Position numbers and translations under genes: made by a program | Assembly (NCBI GenBank): GCA_028711705.1 | Contig: JAQTRS010000001.1 | Coordinates: 30,581 to 94,580, forward strand | Reading direction: 5' to 3' | Length of the DNA: 64,000 bases | DNA from: Candidatus Moraniibacteriota bacterium | GTDB taxonomy: Bacteria > Patescibacteriota > Minisyncoccia > Moranbacterales > UBA1568 | Notes under the pieces: model-generated | The model's input: the letters and a program-made list of their open reading frames with translations, nothing else | Told to the model about the DNA's origin: nothing | The model's database searches: none | Shown here: positions 55,525-63,028 of the stretch, one piece after another | How the letters are laid out: the number at the start of each line of letters is the position of its first letter | Numbering within the stretch: the stretch's first letter is position 1

Positions 55525-56796
55525 ATGGATCAGACGATGGATCAAAAACACAATAAACGAAGCCATTTGCATCCGTTGTACTCGAAACTCGCCAAGAGCT
55601 TGTTTCTTGGCGCGTTCATCGCCGGTTACTGCGCATACCCGGCATCCCTCGTTATCGCTGCCGACAGCGCGAATTCTTTACAGGATGAGCTTGATGCGAT
55701 TAACAACAAGATCAAATCATACAACAGCCTCGTCAATCAGACCCAGCAGCAGCGTGTGATGCTTGCCAATGAAATCAAGATACTCGAGGCGAATGCCGCC
55801 GCGCTGGAGAAAAAAATCAGTGACAATACCCAGCAGATCCAAAGTCTTGATAGCGAAATAACCGGGATACGCAGTAAAATAGACGAAAAAGAAAGGATCA
55901 TCATAGCGCAGAAAGACCTGCTCAAACAGCTGATGCGCTCATATTACGAAAATACCGAGCGCACGAAGATTCAATTGCTCCTTTCGACGCAGGAATCGAA
56001 TCAGCTGCTCGATCAGAACGATTGGACGGTTGAGACCGGGGACAAAATAAAGGAACTCCTTGCAGATATGCAGTCCACGAAAGCCGGCCTTGCCACGCAG
56101 CATGACAGCCTGCAGGATAAGAAGCAGCAGGCCGACGCCTTACGCGCGCAGCTTGAGCGACGATCTGGATATCTGGAAACCACTAAGCAATCCAAAGAAT
56201 CTTTGGTGGTAAAGACTCAGGTACAGGAAAAGAAATACAACAATATCATCGACGATCTCGAGGAAAAGCGAAACGAGATCGAAGATGAAATCAATCAGTT
56301 GGAAGCTGCCAAGACGAGCAATCTTGACCTCAGCAAGCTTCCTGCATTCCGGAAAAGCACGCTGTATTTTCCGGTTGCGAATCCCCACAAGAGCCAAGGC
56401 TATGGCAAGGCTACATGGACAAAGCAGTACTCATTCCACAATGGTATAGACTTTTCCGACAGTACAGGTACGCCGATCATCGCAGCAGGGGATGGTAAGG
56501 TTTTGGCGACTGGAAATAACGGTAAGTATGCCTATGGAAAATGGATCGCCATCGATCACGGCAACGGATTGGTGACTATGTATGGCCACTTAAGCGTGCA
56601 GAAGGTCTCGAAGGGGGAGAGCGTTAAAAGGGGAGGTGTTATCGGGCTGATGGGTAATACGGGATTTTCGACCGGGCCCCATGTCCACTTCAGTGTCTTC
56701 GCCAAAAATTCATTCGACATAGTCCCCTCCACCAAAGTTTCTGGATTGATGCTGCCTACCGGCGCTCACGTCAATCCGGCGAACTACCTTCCTTGA
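55525..56796 (+). CDS. M23-family peptidoglycan metalloendopeptidase with an N-terminal coiled coil (EnvC-like)
   Basis: Long coiled coil, then HNGIDFSDSTGTPIIAAGDG ... GNTGFSTGPHVHF. Confidence 0.85.
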   Translation: MDQTMDQKHNKRSHLHPLYSKLAKSLFLGAFIAGYCAYPASLVIAADSANSLQDELDAINNKIKSYNSLVNQTQQQRVMLANEIKILEANAAALEKKISDNTQQIQSLDSEITGIRSKIDEKERIIIAQKDLLKQLMRSYYENTERTKIQLLLSTQESNQLLDQNDWTVETGDKIKELLADMQSTKAGLATQHDSLQDKKQQADALRAQLERRSGYLETTKQSKESLVVKTQVQEKKYNNIIDDLEEKRNEIEDEINQLEAAKTSNLDLSKLPAFRKSTLYFPVANPHKSQGYGKATWTKQYSFHNGIDFSDSTGTPIIAAGDGKVLATGNNGKYAYGKWIAIDHGNGLVTMYGHLSVQKVSKGESVKRGGVIGLMGNTGFSTGPHVHFSVFAKNSFDIVPSTKVSGLMLPTGAHVNPANYLP

Positions 56797-57560
56797 TCTT
56801 TATAGATAGACGCGCACCCCGTCCTATCGCTCGTATTGTGCGCTGTGACGAATATTTGATGCCACGGATGTATGCGAAAGTCTATCGATACTTTTTCACG
56901 TCTTCATTTGCAAAATAACGGGCACGTTTGTGGAAATTATCGGCTCGTAATGACCGAATTTCGGCCAAAAACACCATCATTTTGACACTCTATTTAAGGC
57001 TTATATAAACCATAAAATGACGCTCAAAATTGACCTGTGCGGGGTTTTTCTTCCGAAATGGTACACGTATACCACCAAAATAGGCTCAAATGAGGGAGTG
57101 CTGCGAGAAACGGGGATTATTGGAAAATGGAAGAGTGTATCTCGTGTACAAGATAAGGATTGGGGGTATGAGATAAACGCCGCATGTCGGGGTAAGGAAA
57201 CGTTCCTGCGAATCCGTGTGTTGTTTGCCGTATGTAATATCTGTAAACTACAATCAGATTGAAAATTGATGCACTTGTACTTATGTGTGTAAAAAACGCG
57301 TCTGAGAGGAAAGTGCTAGCAGGTGATGTCTATTGGTATGCTATCTGTATGAGAATTTATATGGACCACGTATAGAGGTCGATACATTTTTCATATCTGA
57401 ATGTGTTTATGTCGCATAAGTTACATTATGCGACATTGTACATACCGCTTGAAATAAGGTATTTCTATCAATTTGTCTCACTTCAGTATCTTCTGCGATA
57501 TACGTAGCTTCTCATTCAGCAAAACCCACTCCTCTTCCCCTTAACCGGTCCGATTACAAA

Positions 57561-57610
57561 TGTAAAAGCCGTACAAAAAGAAATTCATTGAAATTCTTTT
57601 CGCACGGCTT
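57561..57610 (-). terminator. Terminator hairpin downstream of the GGDEF-like gene (AAAGCCGTGCG...GTACGGCTTT)
   Basis: Imperfect ~9-bp stem read on the minus strand. Confidence 0.4.
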
Positions 57611-57645
57611 TATATTCGTTTATGCTTCCGGCATTTTCTCAGCCT

Positions 57646-58368
57646 TCAGACATAGGACGACTGGGAACGTGTTTTCTCACTCTTTTTATGTAAAGCATTC
57701 GATATCCAGGCCCATGTCGATACGACTTCCTGCTCCGCTTCATTTTCTTCTTCCTGAGCAACATCAAAGGATATGTCTATTGTCTCGTGCAATGTATGCT
57801 CGGCAAGCTCTACCCATGATAGCATGGTGGTTGATACGACGCTTTCAAGCGCGGGATAGATAAGGATAGTATCATCCGCCGCTGTCTGTATGGTTTGCAG
57901 GAATTGATCACTCTCTTCCTTGCGAACTTTTTTTCGAGTAATGATGATGCGGAATACGCCTTTATCGATCCTGAAACATTGATCGGCCGGGTGGAGCAGA
58001 TATTTCTTAATATTCGCAGCCAAAAGTCTGACGAGTATATCTTGCTCTACCTTTTTCAGGCTTTCGATTCTATTCAGTTTTACCTGAATAAAATGTATCG
58101 CTTCATCTTTGCCATCGCCATCAGCCTCGATGCAGGCTTCAAGCAACAGCTGCGGTAGGAACACCTCGTCCAAAAACCGCTTATTCCCCCACTTGGTCAA
58201 TGGGTCGAAGAAAGCGACCGATGAAAGCTGCGCGTTTGTCTTGCAGGTCATCACCAGCATTGTGATCATACCTACTACAAGTATAAGGAGCGCGATCAGT
58301 ATTTCGTTAGTGTGGAGCGTTACGAACTTGGCTAGATATAACATAAAAACACCTCTTTGTTGTTGCAA
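57646..58368 (-). CDS. Membrane-anchored degenerate GGDEF-domain protein (GGDEF replaced by DKGVF)
   Basis: FDPLTKWGNKRFLDE resembles the GGDEF domain start. The A-site position reads CFRIDKGVFRIII instead of RYGGDEF. Confidence 0.45.
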   Translation of the reverse strand: MQQQRGVFMLYLAKFVTLHTNEILIALLILVVGMITMLVMTCKTNAQLSSVAFFDPLTKWGNKRFLDEVFLPQLLLEACIEADGDGKDEAIHFIQVKLNRIESLKKVEQDILVRLLAANIKKYLLHPADQCFRIDKGVFRIIITRKKVRKEESDQFLQTIQTAADDTILIYPALESVVSTTMLSWVELAEHTLHETIDISFDVAQEEENEAEQEVVSTWAWISNALHKKSEKTRSQSSYV

Positions 58369-58491
58369 TAAAGAAAATTGTTAAGGTATGCGATAAGTGA
58401 ATTACTTATCAAAGCATATTAACATATCTTTACAAAAAAGTCAAGTGTTTTTATGATGATATTCGGTTGCTTCGCTTCAGAAATACCGTTA

Positions 58492-58842
58492 CTAAGCCTT
58501 TCTAAATTTGACGGCGAAGAGGGGTTCGTAGCGGTTCTGATACTCATCCACCACTTCGACGGTTTTGCCGTCCATGAGGGTGGTGATAGCGATATCGTTG
58601 AGCATCTCTTGCTCGCTTTCGATCTCGTCTTTCAGGTCTTCAAGTTCGGCGTAGCGTTTTCCCATCTGCTCTTGGGTGCGGATCTCGATCTGTTTTTTGC
58701 GCTCCTTGAGTTTCTTGAGTTCCTCCAGAATCAATTCATGATCATCAGCATTGGCAAGCGTATCGGCGTATTCTTTCTTAATGGTCTTCATTTCCTTTTT
58801 CATCTCTTGGATGTGGTTGAAAATCGATTGCAGGTCCTTCAT
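58492..58842 (-). CDS. Hypothetical coiled-coil protein (116 aa)
   Basis: Lys/Glu-rich heptad-like ORF. Confidence 0.4.
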   Translation of the reverse strand: MKDLQSIFNHIQEMKKEMKTIKKEYADTLANADDHELILEELKKLKERKKQIEIRTQEQMGKRYAELEDLKDEIESEQEMLNDIAITTLMDGKTVEVVDEYQNRYEPLFAVKFRKA

Positions 58843-58970
58843 AGCATTTCTTTTTATATGATGAGTTAAAATGTATCCCCCGCCCCCTTTTTAAATAAAC
58901 AAAAAGAGCACCGGAAAGAATGTCTATACATAGTATAGCACATACCTCGGCCACCCTTCTTTCAGGTGCT

Positions 58971-60110
58971 TTATTCGAACAGATAAAGGTATTTACTGTA
59001 GCCTTTGGCTTCCATTTCTTCCTTCGGGATGAAGAAGAGGGCGGCGGAATTCATGCAGTAGCGTTTGCCGCCGCGATCCTTAGGGCCGTCATCGAAGACA
59101 TGCCCGAGATGGGAGTCGGCGTGTTTGGACCGCACCTCGATTCGGGTCGTGAACAACCCCTTGTCCTCGTGGAGTGTGACATCATCGTTTTCGATCGGCT
59201 TGACGAAGGATGGCCAACCGGTGCCAGAGTCATATTTGTCTTTGGACGAGAAAAGCGGTTCTCCGGAAATTCGGTCAACATAGATACCGTCGGCCTTATT
59301 GGTATCGTATTCGTTATTGAAGGGCGGCTCGGTGCCTTCTTGCTGGGTCACTTTGTATTGGAGCGGGGTCAGCGTCTGCTTGAGCATCTCGTCGGATGGC
59401 TTCTGATAGTTTTCAAAATCCGTCGCGCCGGATATTTGAGGCATCGGTGTTTCGGCTACGGATCCCTTTCCTTTGTGCTGTTCGATAAAATCGCTCCGAC
59501 CGGATCTGCTTCGATAGAAGTTATAGCGAACCGGGTTTTTCTTCGCGTAGTCCTGATGGTATTCTTCCGCCGGCCAAAACTTCACGCGTGGGATCACGAC
59601 GATAGCGATCGGCTTGGCATACACCTCTTCCGCGTCTATTTTGGCGATCACTTTCTGTGCGATGATTTTTTCCTCATCGGTGTCATAGTAGATGGCCGGT
59701 GCATACTGCTTTCCGCGGTCATTGAAGGAGCCCGTAGCGTCTGTCGGGTCACTGTAGCGCATGATGTGCTCCACAAGGCTCTCATAGGTCGTTTTTGAGG
59801 GGTCATAGGTGACCTCAACGACTTCGCGGTGTCCGCCTTGGGCGTAGTTTTCATAGGTCGGGTTTTCCGTTGAGCCGCCGGCATAACCGGAAACGACGTT
59901 CACGATTCCGCTCAGCTTCTCAAAATCCGCTTCGACGCACCAAAAACACCCTCCCGCAAAAAGAGCGGTCTTTGTTCCCTCTGTAGTGGTTGATGGCATA
60001 GGCGTGATGTTAGATGATGATTGATTACGCGACAAAAACGCTGCCAGAGAGATGACCGCGAGTAGGATAAGGATTCCGGCGAGTACCATAGGTTGTTTGT
60101 AGTTATACAT
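58971..60110 (-). CDS. msrAB: Bifunctional methionine sulfoxide reductase MsrA-MsrB, N-terminally membrane-anchored
   Basis: TM segment ([17 protein letters not shown]). MsrA motif GGCFWCVE. MsrB motifs [17 protein letters not shown] and CMNSAAL. The longer ORF to 60332 overextends. Confidence 0.85.
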
Positions 60111-60112
60111 AG

Positions 60113-60481
60113 TTATTTCCATAGAGTGAGCCATACGCCGATATAGTGTACTACGACGTAGAGGAAGAAAATATATCCGAGGACACCGACGATGAGGGTC
60201 AACGCGATCGTATTGATAATCTCGTTGCGCTGGCGTTTCGCGGCGTCGAGCGAGCAGATGTTTTTGGTCCGACGGAAGTAGAGCACGAGTGCGATGGCCA
60301 TGACGATCAGACCTGCCAGACGAAAATACCATTTATATTCCCCATAGAGCGTATCAGCAAGCGAGGAGGCGAAACTGACCGTCCCGATACCGAAAACGAC
60401 CAATATGACCGGCGACAAGCAGCAAAGCGATGCGATCAGTACCGGTATCCCGCTCAGTTTGAGGATTTCCTTTATATTCAT
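60113..60481 (-). CDS. Small 3-TM membrane protein with a vicinal Cys pair (SLCCLSPV) in TM1, MerT-like. Its stop lies 2 nt from the msrAB start.
   Basis: The architecture (CC in the first TM, a Cys in a cytoplasmic loop, ~120 aa) resembles MerT. Confidence 0.5.
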
Positions 60482-60492
60482 ACGTGGAACTT

Positions 60493-60882
60493 TTAATATA
60501 CTTTTGCGGAATTAAAGAGCACTCCGAATGCCTTACACCAGATGAGCACATACGGGTACTCGCGAGGATTGATATTCTCTGGGATTTCATAGTTGATATT
60601 CCCCTCCGTTGCGCGGACACGACCGATTTCGACATATTCTTTCGCATCAAAATCTTTCGAAAGATAGACATAAATATCCGGGCCGTTGATAGTTTGCAAC
60701 TCCTCGTAACGTACGAACGATTTGCCACCCGACCGGATAATGCGTACAAAGCCGCTTCCAGGATGAGCCGGGGTCGCGATTATCGCTACCCGATTACTGA
60801 TCGTTTCTTCTGCTACGTCCTGCGGAAGCGTATCCGTAACAGACCGGTCTAATGATGCCGGTGCGCCTTTGGAAGAAGGCAT
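60493..60882 (-). CDS. DM13-like domain protein. The N-terminal signal/TM segment appears to lie in another frame upstream (possible frameshift).
   Basis: NGPDIYVYLSKD, YEIPENI and YPYVLIWCKAFGVLFNSA resemble DM13 domain motifs. An out-of-frame MNTQRIIIICVGVAAAGFAYYAI ORF starts at 60992. Confidence 0.4.
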   Translation of the reverse strand: MPSSKGAPASLDRSVTDTLPQDVAEETISNRVAIIATPAHPGSGFVRIIRSGGKSFVRYEELQTINGPDIYVYLSKDFDAKEYVEIGRVRATEGNINYEIPENINPREYPYVLIWCKAFGVLFNSAKVY

Positions 60883-61071
60883 CGGTAGGGCTCATCGACA
60901 CGCACATTGCGAAACAAAGGCGAGATGGCATAGTAAGCAAAACCCGCCGCCGCTACACCAACACAGATGATAATGATTCGTTGCGTATTCATAGTAGTAG
61001 TATATACCACTTTAGGATTAAAACCAGCTCCGAAATCATACCCTTTCAGTCCTACTACGAAAAGAGCGCCG

Positions 61072-61527
61072 TTATTTTTCCAAAGCGGATGATGCCTGTC
61101 CTATCATGCGGCTGAGTGTTTGTAAAAAACTTGCTGCCCCGGCCACGGAAAGGAGGATGAGGAGTATGAAATACTCGGGCAGTGTCGTATAAAAAACCAT
61201 AACTCCGAAACCGAACCATATCCCCGCACACCACGGACAGCTTGTGATGTGACCCAAAGAACGCATGAGGGCATTCCCGCGCGTCAGCCATTCACGGATA
61301 AACTGCGTGATGGAATCATACACGAAAAGACGGATAATCCGATACGTCGCCAAAATCAATATCGACATATCCAGCATGGGAATCCTCGTCGGCAGAGCCC
61401 CGATGAAATGCTGAAAATAATATGCCATCCCAAAAGAAAGGACTGGAAAAAAGAAGAAAAGGAAGACGCTCCATCTTTCTGCGCCTGTATCCCCTTTGTG
61501 TATGTGGCACCCAAGGTGTTGGTTCAT
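61072..61527 (-). CDS. DUF1360-like membrane protein
   Basis: The CPWCAGIW motif after hydrophobic helices is typical of DUF1360. Confidence 0.5.
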   Translation of the reverse strand: MNQHLGCHIHKGDTGAERWSVFLFFFFPVLSFGMAYYFQHFIGALPTRIPMLDMSILILATYRIIRLFVYDSITQFIREWLTRGNALMRSLGHITSCPWCAGIWFGFGVMVFYTTLPEYFILLILLSVAGAASFLQTLSRMIGQASSALEK

Positions 61528-61570: not shown

Positions 61571-63028
61571 CTACAGACTTCCCAAATCCAAGACCTCGTC
61601 GATACGGATCTGCGACCAGAAGTCCGGGACGTGGCTCACGAGAATCATCGTGCCCTTGTACTGATCGAGCGCTTCGGCGATAACAGGAATGTGACGGAAG
61701 TTGATGTGATTGGTCGGCTCATCAAGAATCAGGAGGCCCGGTTTTTCCAAGACGAGCCTGGCGAATGCTAAAAGCCCCTTCTGTCCTTCGGAAAGGCTGC
61801 CGACCGTTTTGGCCAAAAGGTCACCGGTCAAAAGGAACTGCGCCGCGGTTTTGCGGATTTCTTCTTCCGCACCGAAATTGGATGCCTGTTTCAAAATATC
61901 ATAGGCCGTAGCATCGAAATCCAGGTTGGAAAAGTCCTGACGATAATAACCGACGATAACGCCTTCGGTGATGACGGTGCGTTCCGAGCTGCCGCCGGTC
62001 AGGGATTCCAAGAAGGTTGTTTTACCGATACCGTTGGGTCCGGAAATAAGGAGATGCTGATTTTTCTTAAGCGTCATATTGACCGGGCATATGGTCGGTT
62101 CATGGTCTTTCATGACGGAGACGGTCTTGATCTGCAGTACCGGCCCGATGATCTCTTGGGCCTGGATAGTGAAGGGGCGGATGGTTTTGTCTTCACGGCG
62201 CACATCGGCTTTGTTTTCTTCAAGGTCTTCAATCGTATCGCGCATTTTCTTGGCGACATTACGCAGCTTGCCTCCCTTTTGCGCGAAGAAGTTGGCCTGC
62301 TCCTTGCGATGCTTGATATCTTTTTCCAAACGGGCGTTCTTGCGCTCTTCTTGTTCGATGCGGCGAGCCACTTCTTCCATCACATCATAATAATTGCCGC
62401 TGTATTGATCTGTTTTATGCGTGAATACATCAAGGTAGACGACGCCATCGGTGAAGGCATTGAGGAAATCGGCATCGTGAGAAATAACGATACAGGTGTT
62501 CGGGTAATTGAGGATGAATTGCGTGAGGTGTTCGATACCGGCATGATCGAGGTTATTGGTCGGCTCATCGAGCAAAAGGATATCCGGATTCTGGATGAGG
62601 GCGTGGGCCAGCAAAAGACGTGCCTGTTGACCGCCTGAAAATGACGAAATCTTTTTCTCGATAGGGTCTTTGACGGTGAGGTGCACGATTTCGAGAGCCT
62701 CTTTGATTTTTCCAACGATATTTCCCGGGACTTCCCGGAATGCGGTTTCAAAGAATTCTTGCACGGTAAGCTCGAGCTGTTCGCGCGCGAATACCTGCTT
62801 GGCGATAGCGACGGTTTCATCCCGATCGATAGAAATCCGGCCGCCTTCCGGTTTGTTTTCTCCGGTAATCAGCTTGAAAAGGGAGCTCTTCCCTGCCCCG
62901 TTCTGACCCATGAGGGTGATTTTCGATCCGCGGCGTATCGAAAAGCTTGCCTCATCCAAGATGGGCTTTTTGTGGTCATACTCGAAGGAAACCTCATCGA
63001 ATCTCAGGATTACATCGTCTTTCGCCAT
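61571..63028 (-). CDS. ABC-F family ATPase (two ABC domains, no TMD)
   Basis: Two Walker A motifs (GQNGAGKSSL and GPNGIGKTTF). Two signature motifs (FSGGQQARL and LSEGQKGLL). Confidence 0.85.
   Translation of the reverse strand: MAKDDVILRFDEVSFEYDHKKPILDEASFSIRRGSKITLMGQNGAGKSSLFKLITGENKPEGGRISIDRDETVAIAKQVFAREQLELTVQEFFETAFREVPGNIVGKIKEALEIVHLTVKDPIEKKISSFSGGQQARLLLAHALIQNPDILLLDEPTNNLDHAGIEHLTQFILNYPNTCIVISHDADFLNAFTDGVVYLDVFTHKTDQYSGNYYDVMEEVARRIEQEERKNARLEKDIKHRKEQANFFAQKGGKLRNVAKKMRDTIEDLEENKADVRREDKTIRPFTIQAQEIIGPVLQIKTVSVMKDHEPTICPVNMTLKKNQHLLISGPNGIGKTTFLESLTGGSSERTVITEGVIVGYYRQDFSNLDFDATAYDILKQASNFGAEEEIRKTAAQFLLTGDLLAKTVGSLSEGQKGLLAFARLVLEKPGLLILDEPTNHINFRHIPVIAEALDQYKGTMILVSHVPDFWSQIRIDEVLDLGSL

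Follow-up and report, generated by a model that had tools for sequence, protein, structure and literature searches.

Known routes of reductant to methionine sulfoxide reductases (Msr) that work outside the cytoplasm run either through CcdA or DsbD together with thioredoxin-like proteins, or through the haem protein MsrQ. Precedent for the former is provided by the CcdA-Etrx-MsrAB2 pathway of Streptococcus pneumoniae (PMC3914529) and by the related DsbD-PilB, S. gordonii and F. nucleatum systems (PMC3914529, PMC7034828, PMC9239216). The locus described here lies in a 64-kb stretch of DNA from a Candidatus Moraniibacteriota bacterium, which was analysed at its full length and is referred to below as the window. 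Four genes at 58971-61527 of its minus strand encode, in the order of transcription, a DUF1360 membrane protein, a DM13-domain protein, a small membrane protein resembling MerT (the MerT-like protein) and a fused MsrA-MsrB enzyme (MsrAB), as seen from the list of open reading frames (ORFs) and the sequence itself. An initial annotation of the stretch had proposed that all four act together as an extracytoplasmic redox operon. The reading favoured here, which we hold with about even confidence, is that only two of the genes form a conserved module, in which a MerT-superfamily protein with three transmembrane (TM) helices is followed by an exported, thiol-dependent MsrAB, and that the MerT-like protein provides the enzyme with reductant through thiol-disulfide exchange. 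Systems that pair an extracytoplasmic Msr with a membrane protein dedicated to it are known; the membrane scaffold differs here. At MsrPQ, too, the gene of a dedicated membrane protein lies beside that of an extracytoplasmic Msr, and MsrQ supplies electrons to MsrP. MsrP is, however, a periplasmic molybdoenzyme and MsrQ a haem protein, whereas MsrA and MsrB are thiol-based. An MsrPQ-type reading was rejected on these grounds, as the enzyme in the window is composed of thiol-based PMSR and SelR domains and its membrane partner, which has conserved cysteines, matches no haem-protein family.

MsrAB of the window matched the Pfam families PMSR (PF01625; E 1.8e-53, 181 bits) and SelR (PF01641; E 2.7e-47, 160 bits) and exceeded the cut-offs of the NCBIfam MsrA and MsrB domain models. 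Both catalytic domains keep the catalytic Cys, in the GCFWC active site of MsrA and in the RYCMNS motif of MsrB. The MsrB domain carries GTGWPSF and is thus without the canonical resolving Cys; it has no CxxC pairs for Zn either, and only three Cys are present in the whole protein. The same set of motifs, a CxxC MsrA and an MsrB without resolving Cys or Zn site, is found in the MerT-linked MsrABs of other loci, most of which carry an N-terminal hydrophobic segment. In the window protein mean Kyte-Doolittle hydropathy peaks at 2.9 over residues 8-26, and the enzyme is predicted from its sequence to be exported. Its placement outside the cytoplasm, made in the initial annotation, agrees with this hydrophobic segment and with the fusions described below, in which the enzyme is joined to the end of the MerT-like protein that is predicted to face outwards. 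Since the linked MsrABs appear to be exported, with a CxxC MsrA and no resolving Cys in MsrB, they would need an external thiol donor.

The membrane protein encoded immediately upstream of MsrAB is by profile comparison a distant relative within the MerT superfamily, and not a MerT member by curated criteria. It matched PF02411 with an E value of 6.3e-6 and 26.7 bits, below the gathering score of 32.9, over positions 14-109 of the 116 in the profile, and scored far below the cut-off of the NCBIfam MerT model (NF010314; 28.3 bits vs 150). No curated family in Pfam or NCBIfam covers it beyond these sub-threshold matches. All the 29 aligned family members matched PF02411 at E<=0.01 (best 2.8e-8), and none of them matched DsbD_TM or DsbD_2 (PF02683 / PF13386). 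The hidden Markov model searches thus uphold the earlier MerT-like call at the level of the superfamily, and place the protein below the curated cut-offs of MerT itself. A sequence search of PDB with the profile of the family gave no relatives. The family is a tight one, with 1280 matches in a large protein database and 320 representatives at E<=1e-3 after clustering at 50%; the best matches that bear a source name are all from Patescibacteria, and identity across classes is 61-87%.

Three hydrophobic segments in the 122-aa protein correspond to three TM helices. TM1 holds a vicinal pair, C20-C21 (LCCLSP), and TM3 holds H112; the loop that joins TM2 to TM3 is basic and has one Cys, C76. The three cysteines are invariant in the 29 aligned family members and in all the 80 loci of the sample described below, and H112 is kept in 77 of these loci. 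The mean number of K+R residues in 29 sequences was 2.5 at the N-terminus and 6.6 in loop 2, compared to 2.0 in loop 1 and 0.5 at the C-terminus, that is 9.1 inside vs 2.5 outside. On the basis of hydropathy and this distribution of charge, the protein is predicted to have its N-terminus inside and its C-terminus outside, with C76 on a cytoplasmic loop. Invariant motifs specific to the family are YGxYKWxFR in the outer loop, N90, and VVHY in TM3.

In the model described for MerT, Hg(II) is handed across the membrane sequentially between Cys pairs, Cys24-Cys25 in TM1 and Cys76/Cys82 in the cytoplasmic loop (PMC5715351). The MerT-like protein resembles MerT (~116 aa) in length, in its three TM helices, in the N-in orientation and in having CC-x-x-P at the same depth of TM1, and it also has a Cys at position 76 in the cytoplasmic loop between TM2 and TM3. 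It differs from MerT in having this one loop Cys in place of the Cys76/Cys82 pair, in carrying invariant motifs of its own, and in its partners, which are MsrAB and thioredoxin as against MerP and MerA, outside any mer operon context.

Linkage of the MerT-like gene to msr genes was followed in 80 species-representative Patescibacteria loci, retrieved with the profile of the MerT-like family. In 50 of the 80 loci msrAB or msrB directly adjoins the MerT-like gene. The MerT-like gene is upstream in 24 (the arrangement in the window; fused in 4), downstream in 17 and divergent in 3, and in the remaining 6 exported MsrB alone is encoded. Other neighbours of the MerT-like gene are poorly conserved across the sample, which argues that the adjacency is not simple inherited synteny. 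Single-chain MerT-like::MsrA::MsrB fusions occur in four loci (L003, L005, L006, L011), and a search with one fusion yielded at least 23 protein clusters of full-length MerT-like::MsrAB fusions (P0121-P0143, 421-502 aa). In the fusions, TM3 replaces the anchor of MsrAB and the GCFWC motif is located ~20 residues past the end of TM3. This layout agrees with the C-out topology and brings the active site of MsrA close to the outer face of the membrane. Conserved adjacency and gene fusions thus strongly support a functional linkage of the MerT-like protein to exported MsrAB. The role of the protein as a dedicated membrane partner of the exported enzyme is the best-supported conclusion of this analysis, and it bears out the earlier suggestion that the three-TM protein with a CC pair in TM1 is the partner of MsrAB. 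In a further protein, P0252, which was seen on seven contigs, the MerT-like module is followed after TM3 by an exported WCPTC thioredoxin (Trx) domain, an architecture that mirrors CcdA::Trx and DsbD. No Msr gene was found near this fusion.

Given the near full-length homology to MerT, the protein could be a true transporter of thiophilic metals (Hg, Cu, Cd, Zn), removing or importing ions that poison or load the catalytic cysteines of MsrAB. The CC(L/V)xP motif in TM1 is the one that binds Hg(II) in MerT (PMC5715351), and fusions to HMA and cupredoxin domains occur among more distant relatives. We nevertheless consider metal transport improbable. Recurrent merR, merP, merA or HMA genes were not seen among the neighbourhoods of the 80 loci, and the HMA-type motif GMxCxxC was not seen in the window. 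Within the clade the module is fused to MsrAB and to thioredoxin and not to domains that bind metals, and the linked MsrB has no Zn site. Moreover, the Cys pair in the cytoplasmic loop, which the distant HMA- and cupredoxin-fused relatives mostly keep, is down to one Cys in the MerT-like clade, and a single loop Cys suits mixed-disulfide chemistry better than bidentate metal binding. A mer-operon reading was rejected for the lack of mer context, the scores below the MerT cut-offs and the one loop Cys.

If the MerT-like protein does supply reductant, it would do so as a conduit in the membrane through which MsrAB is kept reduced. A disulfide in which C76 and the TM1 cysteines take part would be reduced by thioredoxin in the cytoplasm, reducing equivalents would pass from C76 to C20/C21, and C20/C21 would in turn reduce two targets at the outer face, the CxxC disulfide of MsrA and the sulfenic acid formed on the 1-Cys MsrB. 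We infer both this electron or disulfide relay and its direction. Such a relay would transpose to thiol-disulfide chemistry the hand-over of Hg(II) between thiol ligands in MerT, and would be functionally analogous to the role of CcdA in the CcdA-Etrx-MsrAB2 pathway. In both systems the gene of an exported or surface MsrAB lies beside that of a small integral membrane protein with cysteines, essential in the CcdA system and invariant in the MerT-like family; the enzyme needs reducing equivalents from the cytoplasm; and the membrane module is found fused to an exported thioredoxin (CcdA::Trx in L037, MerT-like::Trx in P0252). The scaffolds are different. CcdA has six TM helices with one Cys each in TM1 and TM4, whereas the MerT-like protein has three, with a vicinal CC in TM1, one loop Cys, a Pfam match to MerT and none to DsbD_TM. 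The MerT-like module can also be fused directly to MsrAB, and most MerT-like/Msr loci have no intermediate Trx-like protein. What it shares with CcdA and DsbD, the genetic coupling or fusion to exported Msr and thioredoxin, is a functional analogy only.

A number of observations weigh against the proposed conduit. To our knowledge, no protein of the MerT family is known for disulfide exchange. A vicinal disulfide is strained, and a reduced CC pair is therefore expected to be a poor reductant. An AlphaFold2 (AF2) model of a MerT-like::MsrAB fusion, with a mean predicted local distance difference test (pLDDT) score of 82, is confident in the Msr domains; it is weak in TM1 (pLDDT 51-57), scores under 50 for the CC pair and for the linker, and lends no structural support to proximity of the cysteines. 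In 30 of the 80 loci the MerT-like gene has no Msr gene within 6 kb. Conversely, a MerT-like neighbour is present at only 6 of the 47 evaluable metagenomic MsrAB relatives, and at 5 of the 9 closest. Five or more loci (L033, L037, L039, L044, L075) combine both routes in one operon, in the order TM protein, anchored thioredoxin, CcdA::TlpA-like fusion, MsrAB and MerT-like protein, and at three metagenomic MsrAB loci CcdA::Trx is present and a MerT-like gene is not. The canonical route thus occurs in these bacteria, and the function of the MerT-like protein could be a different one. Replacement of CcdA by the MerT-like protein is not established, nor is the earlier claim that a MerT-like protein plus DM13 forms a relay different from the CcdA solution, as the two routes coexist in these loci.

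One such other function would be that of a partner that carries no electrons, be it a scaffold, an anchor or a thiol redox sensor or regulator of MsrAB, with CcdA-thioredoxin giving the reducing power. The operons in which CcdA::Trx and an anchored Trx accompany MsrAB and the MerT-like protein are in line with it, as are the MsrAB loci with CcdA::Trx and no MerT-like gene, and the substitution of the MerT-like part for the MsrAB anchor in the fusions. A mere anchor, however, would not need three invariant cysteines and so high an identity across classes, and the fusion of the MerT-like module to an exported thioredoxin without a nearby Msr gene argues for redox chemistry rather than anchoring. 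CcdA::Trx, anchored Trx and DsbB were not found in the window by tblastn, a weak argument as the genome is larger than the window. We regard a partner without electron transfer as rather unlikely, and retain the supply of reductant by the MerT-like protein as the preferred reading.

More widely, MerT-fold proteins with three Cys may represent a new class of small transmembrane thiol-disulfide conduits, widespread in Patescibacteria and independent of CcdA/DsbD, that would directly reduce exported MsrA, 1-Cys MsrB and, in some lineages, a tethered thioredoxin, with DM13 as a redox accessory. We advance this generalisation tentatively, and hold it at somewhat less than even confidence. The literature search gave no paper linking MerT-type proteins with methionine sulfoxide reductases and no prior account of the MerT-like/MsrAB pairing. 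If the proposal is true, these proteins would add to the two known routes a third transmembrane conduit of reductant for extracytoplasmic Msr, much smaller and without structural relation to the others, in which disulfide chemistry has taken over a scaffold for the thiol relay of Hg(II). The proposal would also account for the repair of oxidised surface proteins in the genome-reduced, cell-attached Patescibacteria. The natural fusions, which are single chains of ~420 aa, are ready-made constructs for a test.

Three further proteins were seen in the course of these searches. In P0264 (598 aa), a member of the family, the MerT-like module forms the C-terminal part of a large polytopic membrane protein that has no Pfam match, whereas P0194 is a PilB-type Trx/redoxin::MsrAB fusion. 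The two show that redox partners are tethered in several different ways in this group. P0249, a high-GC and probably non-Patescibacteria relative of the MerT-like protein (L179:675-1550), has an extra C-terminal TM helix. Its gene is divergent from OsmC and GFA (glutathione-dependent formaldehyde-activating) genes on a contig of only 2.5 kb, a neighbourhood that may represent another thiol or oxidative-stress context.

Immediately upstream of a number of msrAB or MerT-like operons, genes for an XRE-type HTH_3 regulator (~70 aa) and then a ~120-aa multi-TM protein without a Pfam match were observed (L033:1600-2177, L088:4367-4931, L091:124-697, and also L025, L037, L039, L040, L070, L075, L101 and L107). 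The pair occurs with or without CcdA::Trx, was not found in the window by tblastn, and may be the regulator pair of the operon.

The DM13 ORF matched PF10517 almost from end to end (E 2.2e-15, 57.6 bits, cut-off 25), so that the DM13-like call of the initial annotation stands. Like other DM13 proteins, among them animal proteins of the Knickkopf and Skeletor type and secreted bacterial ones, it keeps the WC, HP and NGPD motifs, and W115-C116 is invariant in its alignment with five DM13::MsrAB fusion homologues. What sets the MsrAB loci apart is that DM13 either makes up a single-domain protein, membrane-anchored and encoded beside the MerT-like and MsrAB genes, or forms the N-terminal part of a fusion with MsrAB. 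DM13 is present in 5 of the 80 MerT-like loci, being immediately adjacent or fused in 3 and heading an msr operon in 1. DM13::MsrAB fusions were found in P0151, P0173, P0179, P0202, P0221 and L066, and a MerT-like gene follows the fusion in L066 as well as in P0151 and P0179, the two of the P-series that were looked up. Based on these five loci and the fusions, DM13 is a genuine but optional associate of MsrAB, and the link between the two drawn in the initial annotation is borne out by independent fusions. In the mechanism proposed above it would be an optional extracytoplasmic accessory of the enzyme in some lineages. The AF2 model of DM13 is an all-beta domain, a confident beta-sandwich with pLDDT >90 over the domain; it gave no significant relatives among solved structures, and none were found by sequence search of PDB. 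We know of no characterised function for the DM13 domain from bacteria to insects, and the literature search gave no description of DM13 in association with methionine sulfoxide reductases. The link to MsrAB is a testable lead on DM13 function, and if the proposed role is correct the domain would gain its first concrete biochemical context.

In the window the DM13 gene is broken by a 1-nt frameshift, which the initial annotation had missed. The TM anchor (MNTQRIIIICVGVAAAGFAYYAISPLFRNVRVDEP) lies in another frame, within an ORF at 60849-61010, and the DM13 domain ORF as sequenced is thus without an export signal. Insertion in silico of one C in the CCC run restores a 166-aa anchored DM13 (…VDEPLPMPSS…) that is collinear with the intact homologues. 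These read through the site (…YYAISPLFR..VDEPLP…), and L033 has VDEPLP at the position of the frameshift. The interruption could be that of a pseudogene or an assembly error.

The DUF1360 protein matched PF07098 (E 5.1e-16, 59 bits vs 21), and its SCPWC motif (C97-P98-W99-C100) is invariant across 21 aligned relatives; family and CPWC motif are thus as first annotated. A DUF1360 gene was found in none of the 80 MerT-like loci. Elsewhere its relatives adjoin multicopper oxidase, Y1-transposase or ribosomal genes. At L081-L086, from other Patescibacteria, DUF1360 genes with SCPWC lie beside a Y1-type (IS200-like) transposase gene, and some also beside a multicopper oxidase gene. These neighbourhoods hint at a separate redox or metal context for DUF1360. 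L172 is the closest syntenic relative, with a MerT-like protein 87% and an MsrAB 80% identical to those of the window. The order there is ABC-F, 99 nt, MerT-like, MsrAB, a 116-aa protein and an M23 peptidase, with neither DUF1360 nor DM13; compared to L172, the window has an extra 1.1 kb that carries these two genes (an indel). DUF1360 is thus a lineage-specific insertion or neighbour that lies outside the conserved module.

A relay that joins DUF1360 (with its CPWC), DM13, the MerT-like protein and MsrAB into a single extracytoplasmic redox operon would be in keeping with the co-directional genes and short gaps, with the conserved cysteines in all four proteins, and with the independent fusion of DM13 to MsrAB elsewhere. 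The different company kept by DUF1360, the indel that sets the DUF1360-DM13 block apart from L172 and the frameshift in DM13 make it highly improbable. The set of four does not recur in the co-occurrence sample, with DUF1360 in 0/80 and DM13 in 5/80 loci and both missing from L172. As an obligatory set, the four-component relay is largely refuted, and the two-gene module of MerT-like protein and MsrAB remains the preferred reading.

The coordinates of the features are given in Table 1. The four co-directional genes and the spacing of 2-80 nt given in the initial annotation were confirmed; the gaps read from the sequence are 79 nt between DUF1360 and the DM13 ATG at 60992, 11 nt between DM13 and the MerT-like gene, and 2 nt before msrAB. 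The hairpin 3' of msrAB has a folding energy of -23.3 kcal/mol and a z-score of -2.63, and its stability was equalled by 2 of 200 shuffles. Scans with consensus promoters and terminators performed no better than chance.

Table 1. Features of the msrAB locus in the 64-kb window.
Feature	Coordinates	Strand	Description	Basis
msrAB	58971..60110	-	379-aa fused MsrA-MsrB, N-terminal signal anchor or signal peptide (predicted)	Pfam, NCBIfam, hydropathy
MerT-like gene	60113..60481	-	122-aa, 3-TM membrane protein; stop codon 2 nt before msrAB ATG	PF02411 sub-threshold match
DM13 domain ORF	60493..60882	-	129 aa; conserved HP, NGPD, WC motifs	PF10517
Detached 5' part of DM13 gene	60849..60992	-	TM anchor (MNTQRIIIICVGVAAAGFAYYAISPLFRNVRVDEP...) in another frame	ORF list, three-frame translation, intact homologues L033, L036, L042, P0151
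DM13 frameshift site, CCC run	60888..60890	-		In-silico repair; L033 comparison
DUF1360 gene	61072..61527	-	151-aa membrane protein, invariant SCPWC	PF07098
Terminator-like hairpin (58907-58970) and U-rich tail	58895..58970	-	Directly 3' of msrAB stop codon	RNA fold

Directly upstream of the four genes and co-directional with them is a gene for an ABC-F type ATPase (two ABC_tran and ABC_tran_Xtn; 61571-63028, minus strand). An ABC-F homologue lies <=6 kb from the MerT-like gene in 16 of the 80 loci, and this proximity probably reflects conserved synteny rather than function. On the other side, the stretch 57157-58492 has no counterpart in L172 and forms a second indel adjoining the msr module. 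It contains a 240-aa ORF (57646-58368, minus strand) that has a TM segment at its N-terminus and matches no family. The module is also flanked by genes for a 116-aa coiled-coil-like protein (58492-58842, minus strand) and for an M23 peptidase whose N-terminal region is a long coiled coil (55525-56796, plus strand), both of which have counterparts in L172.

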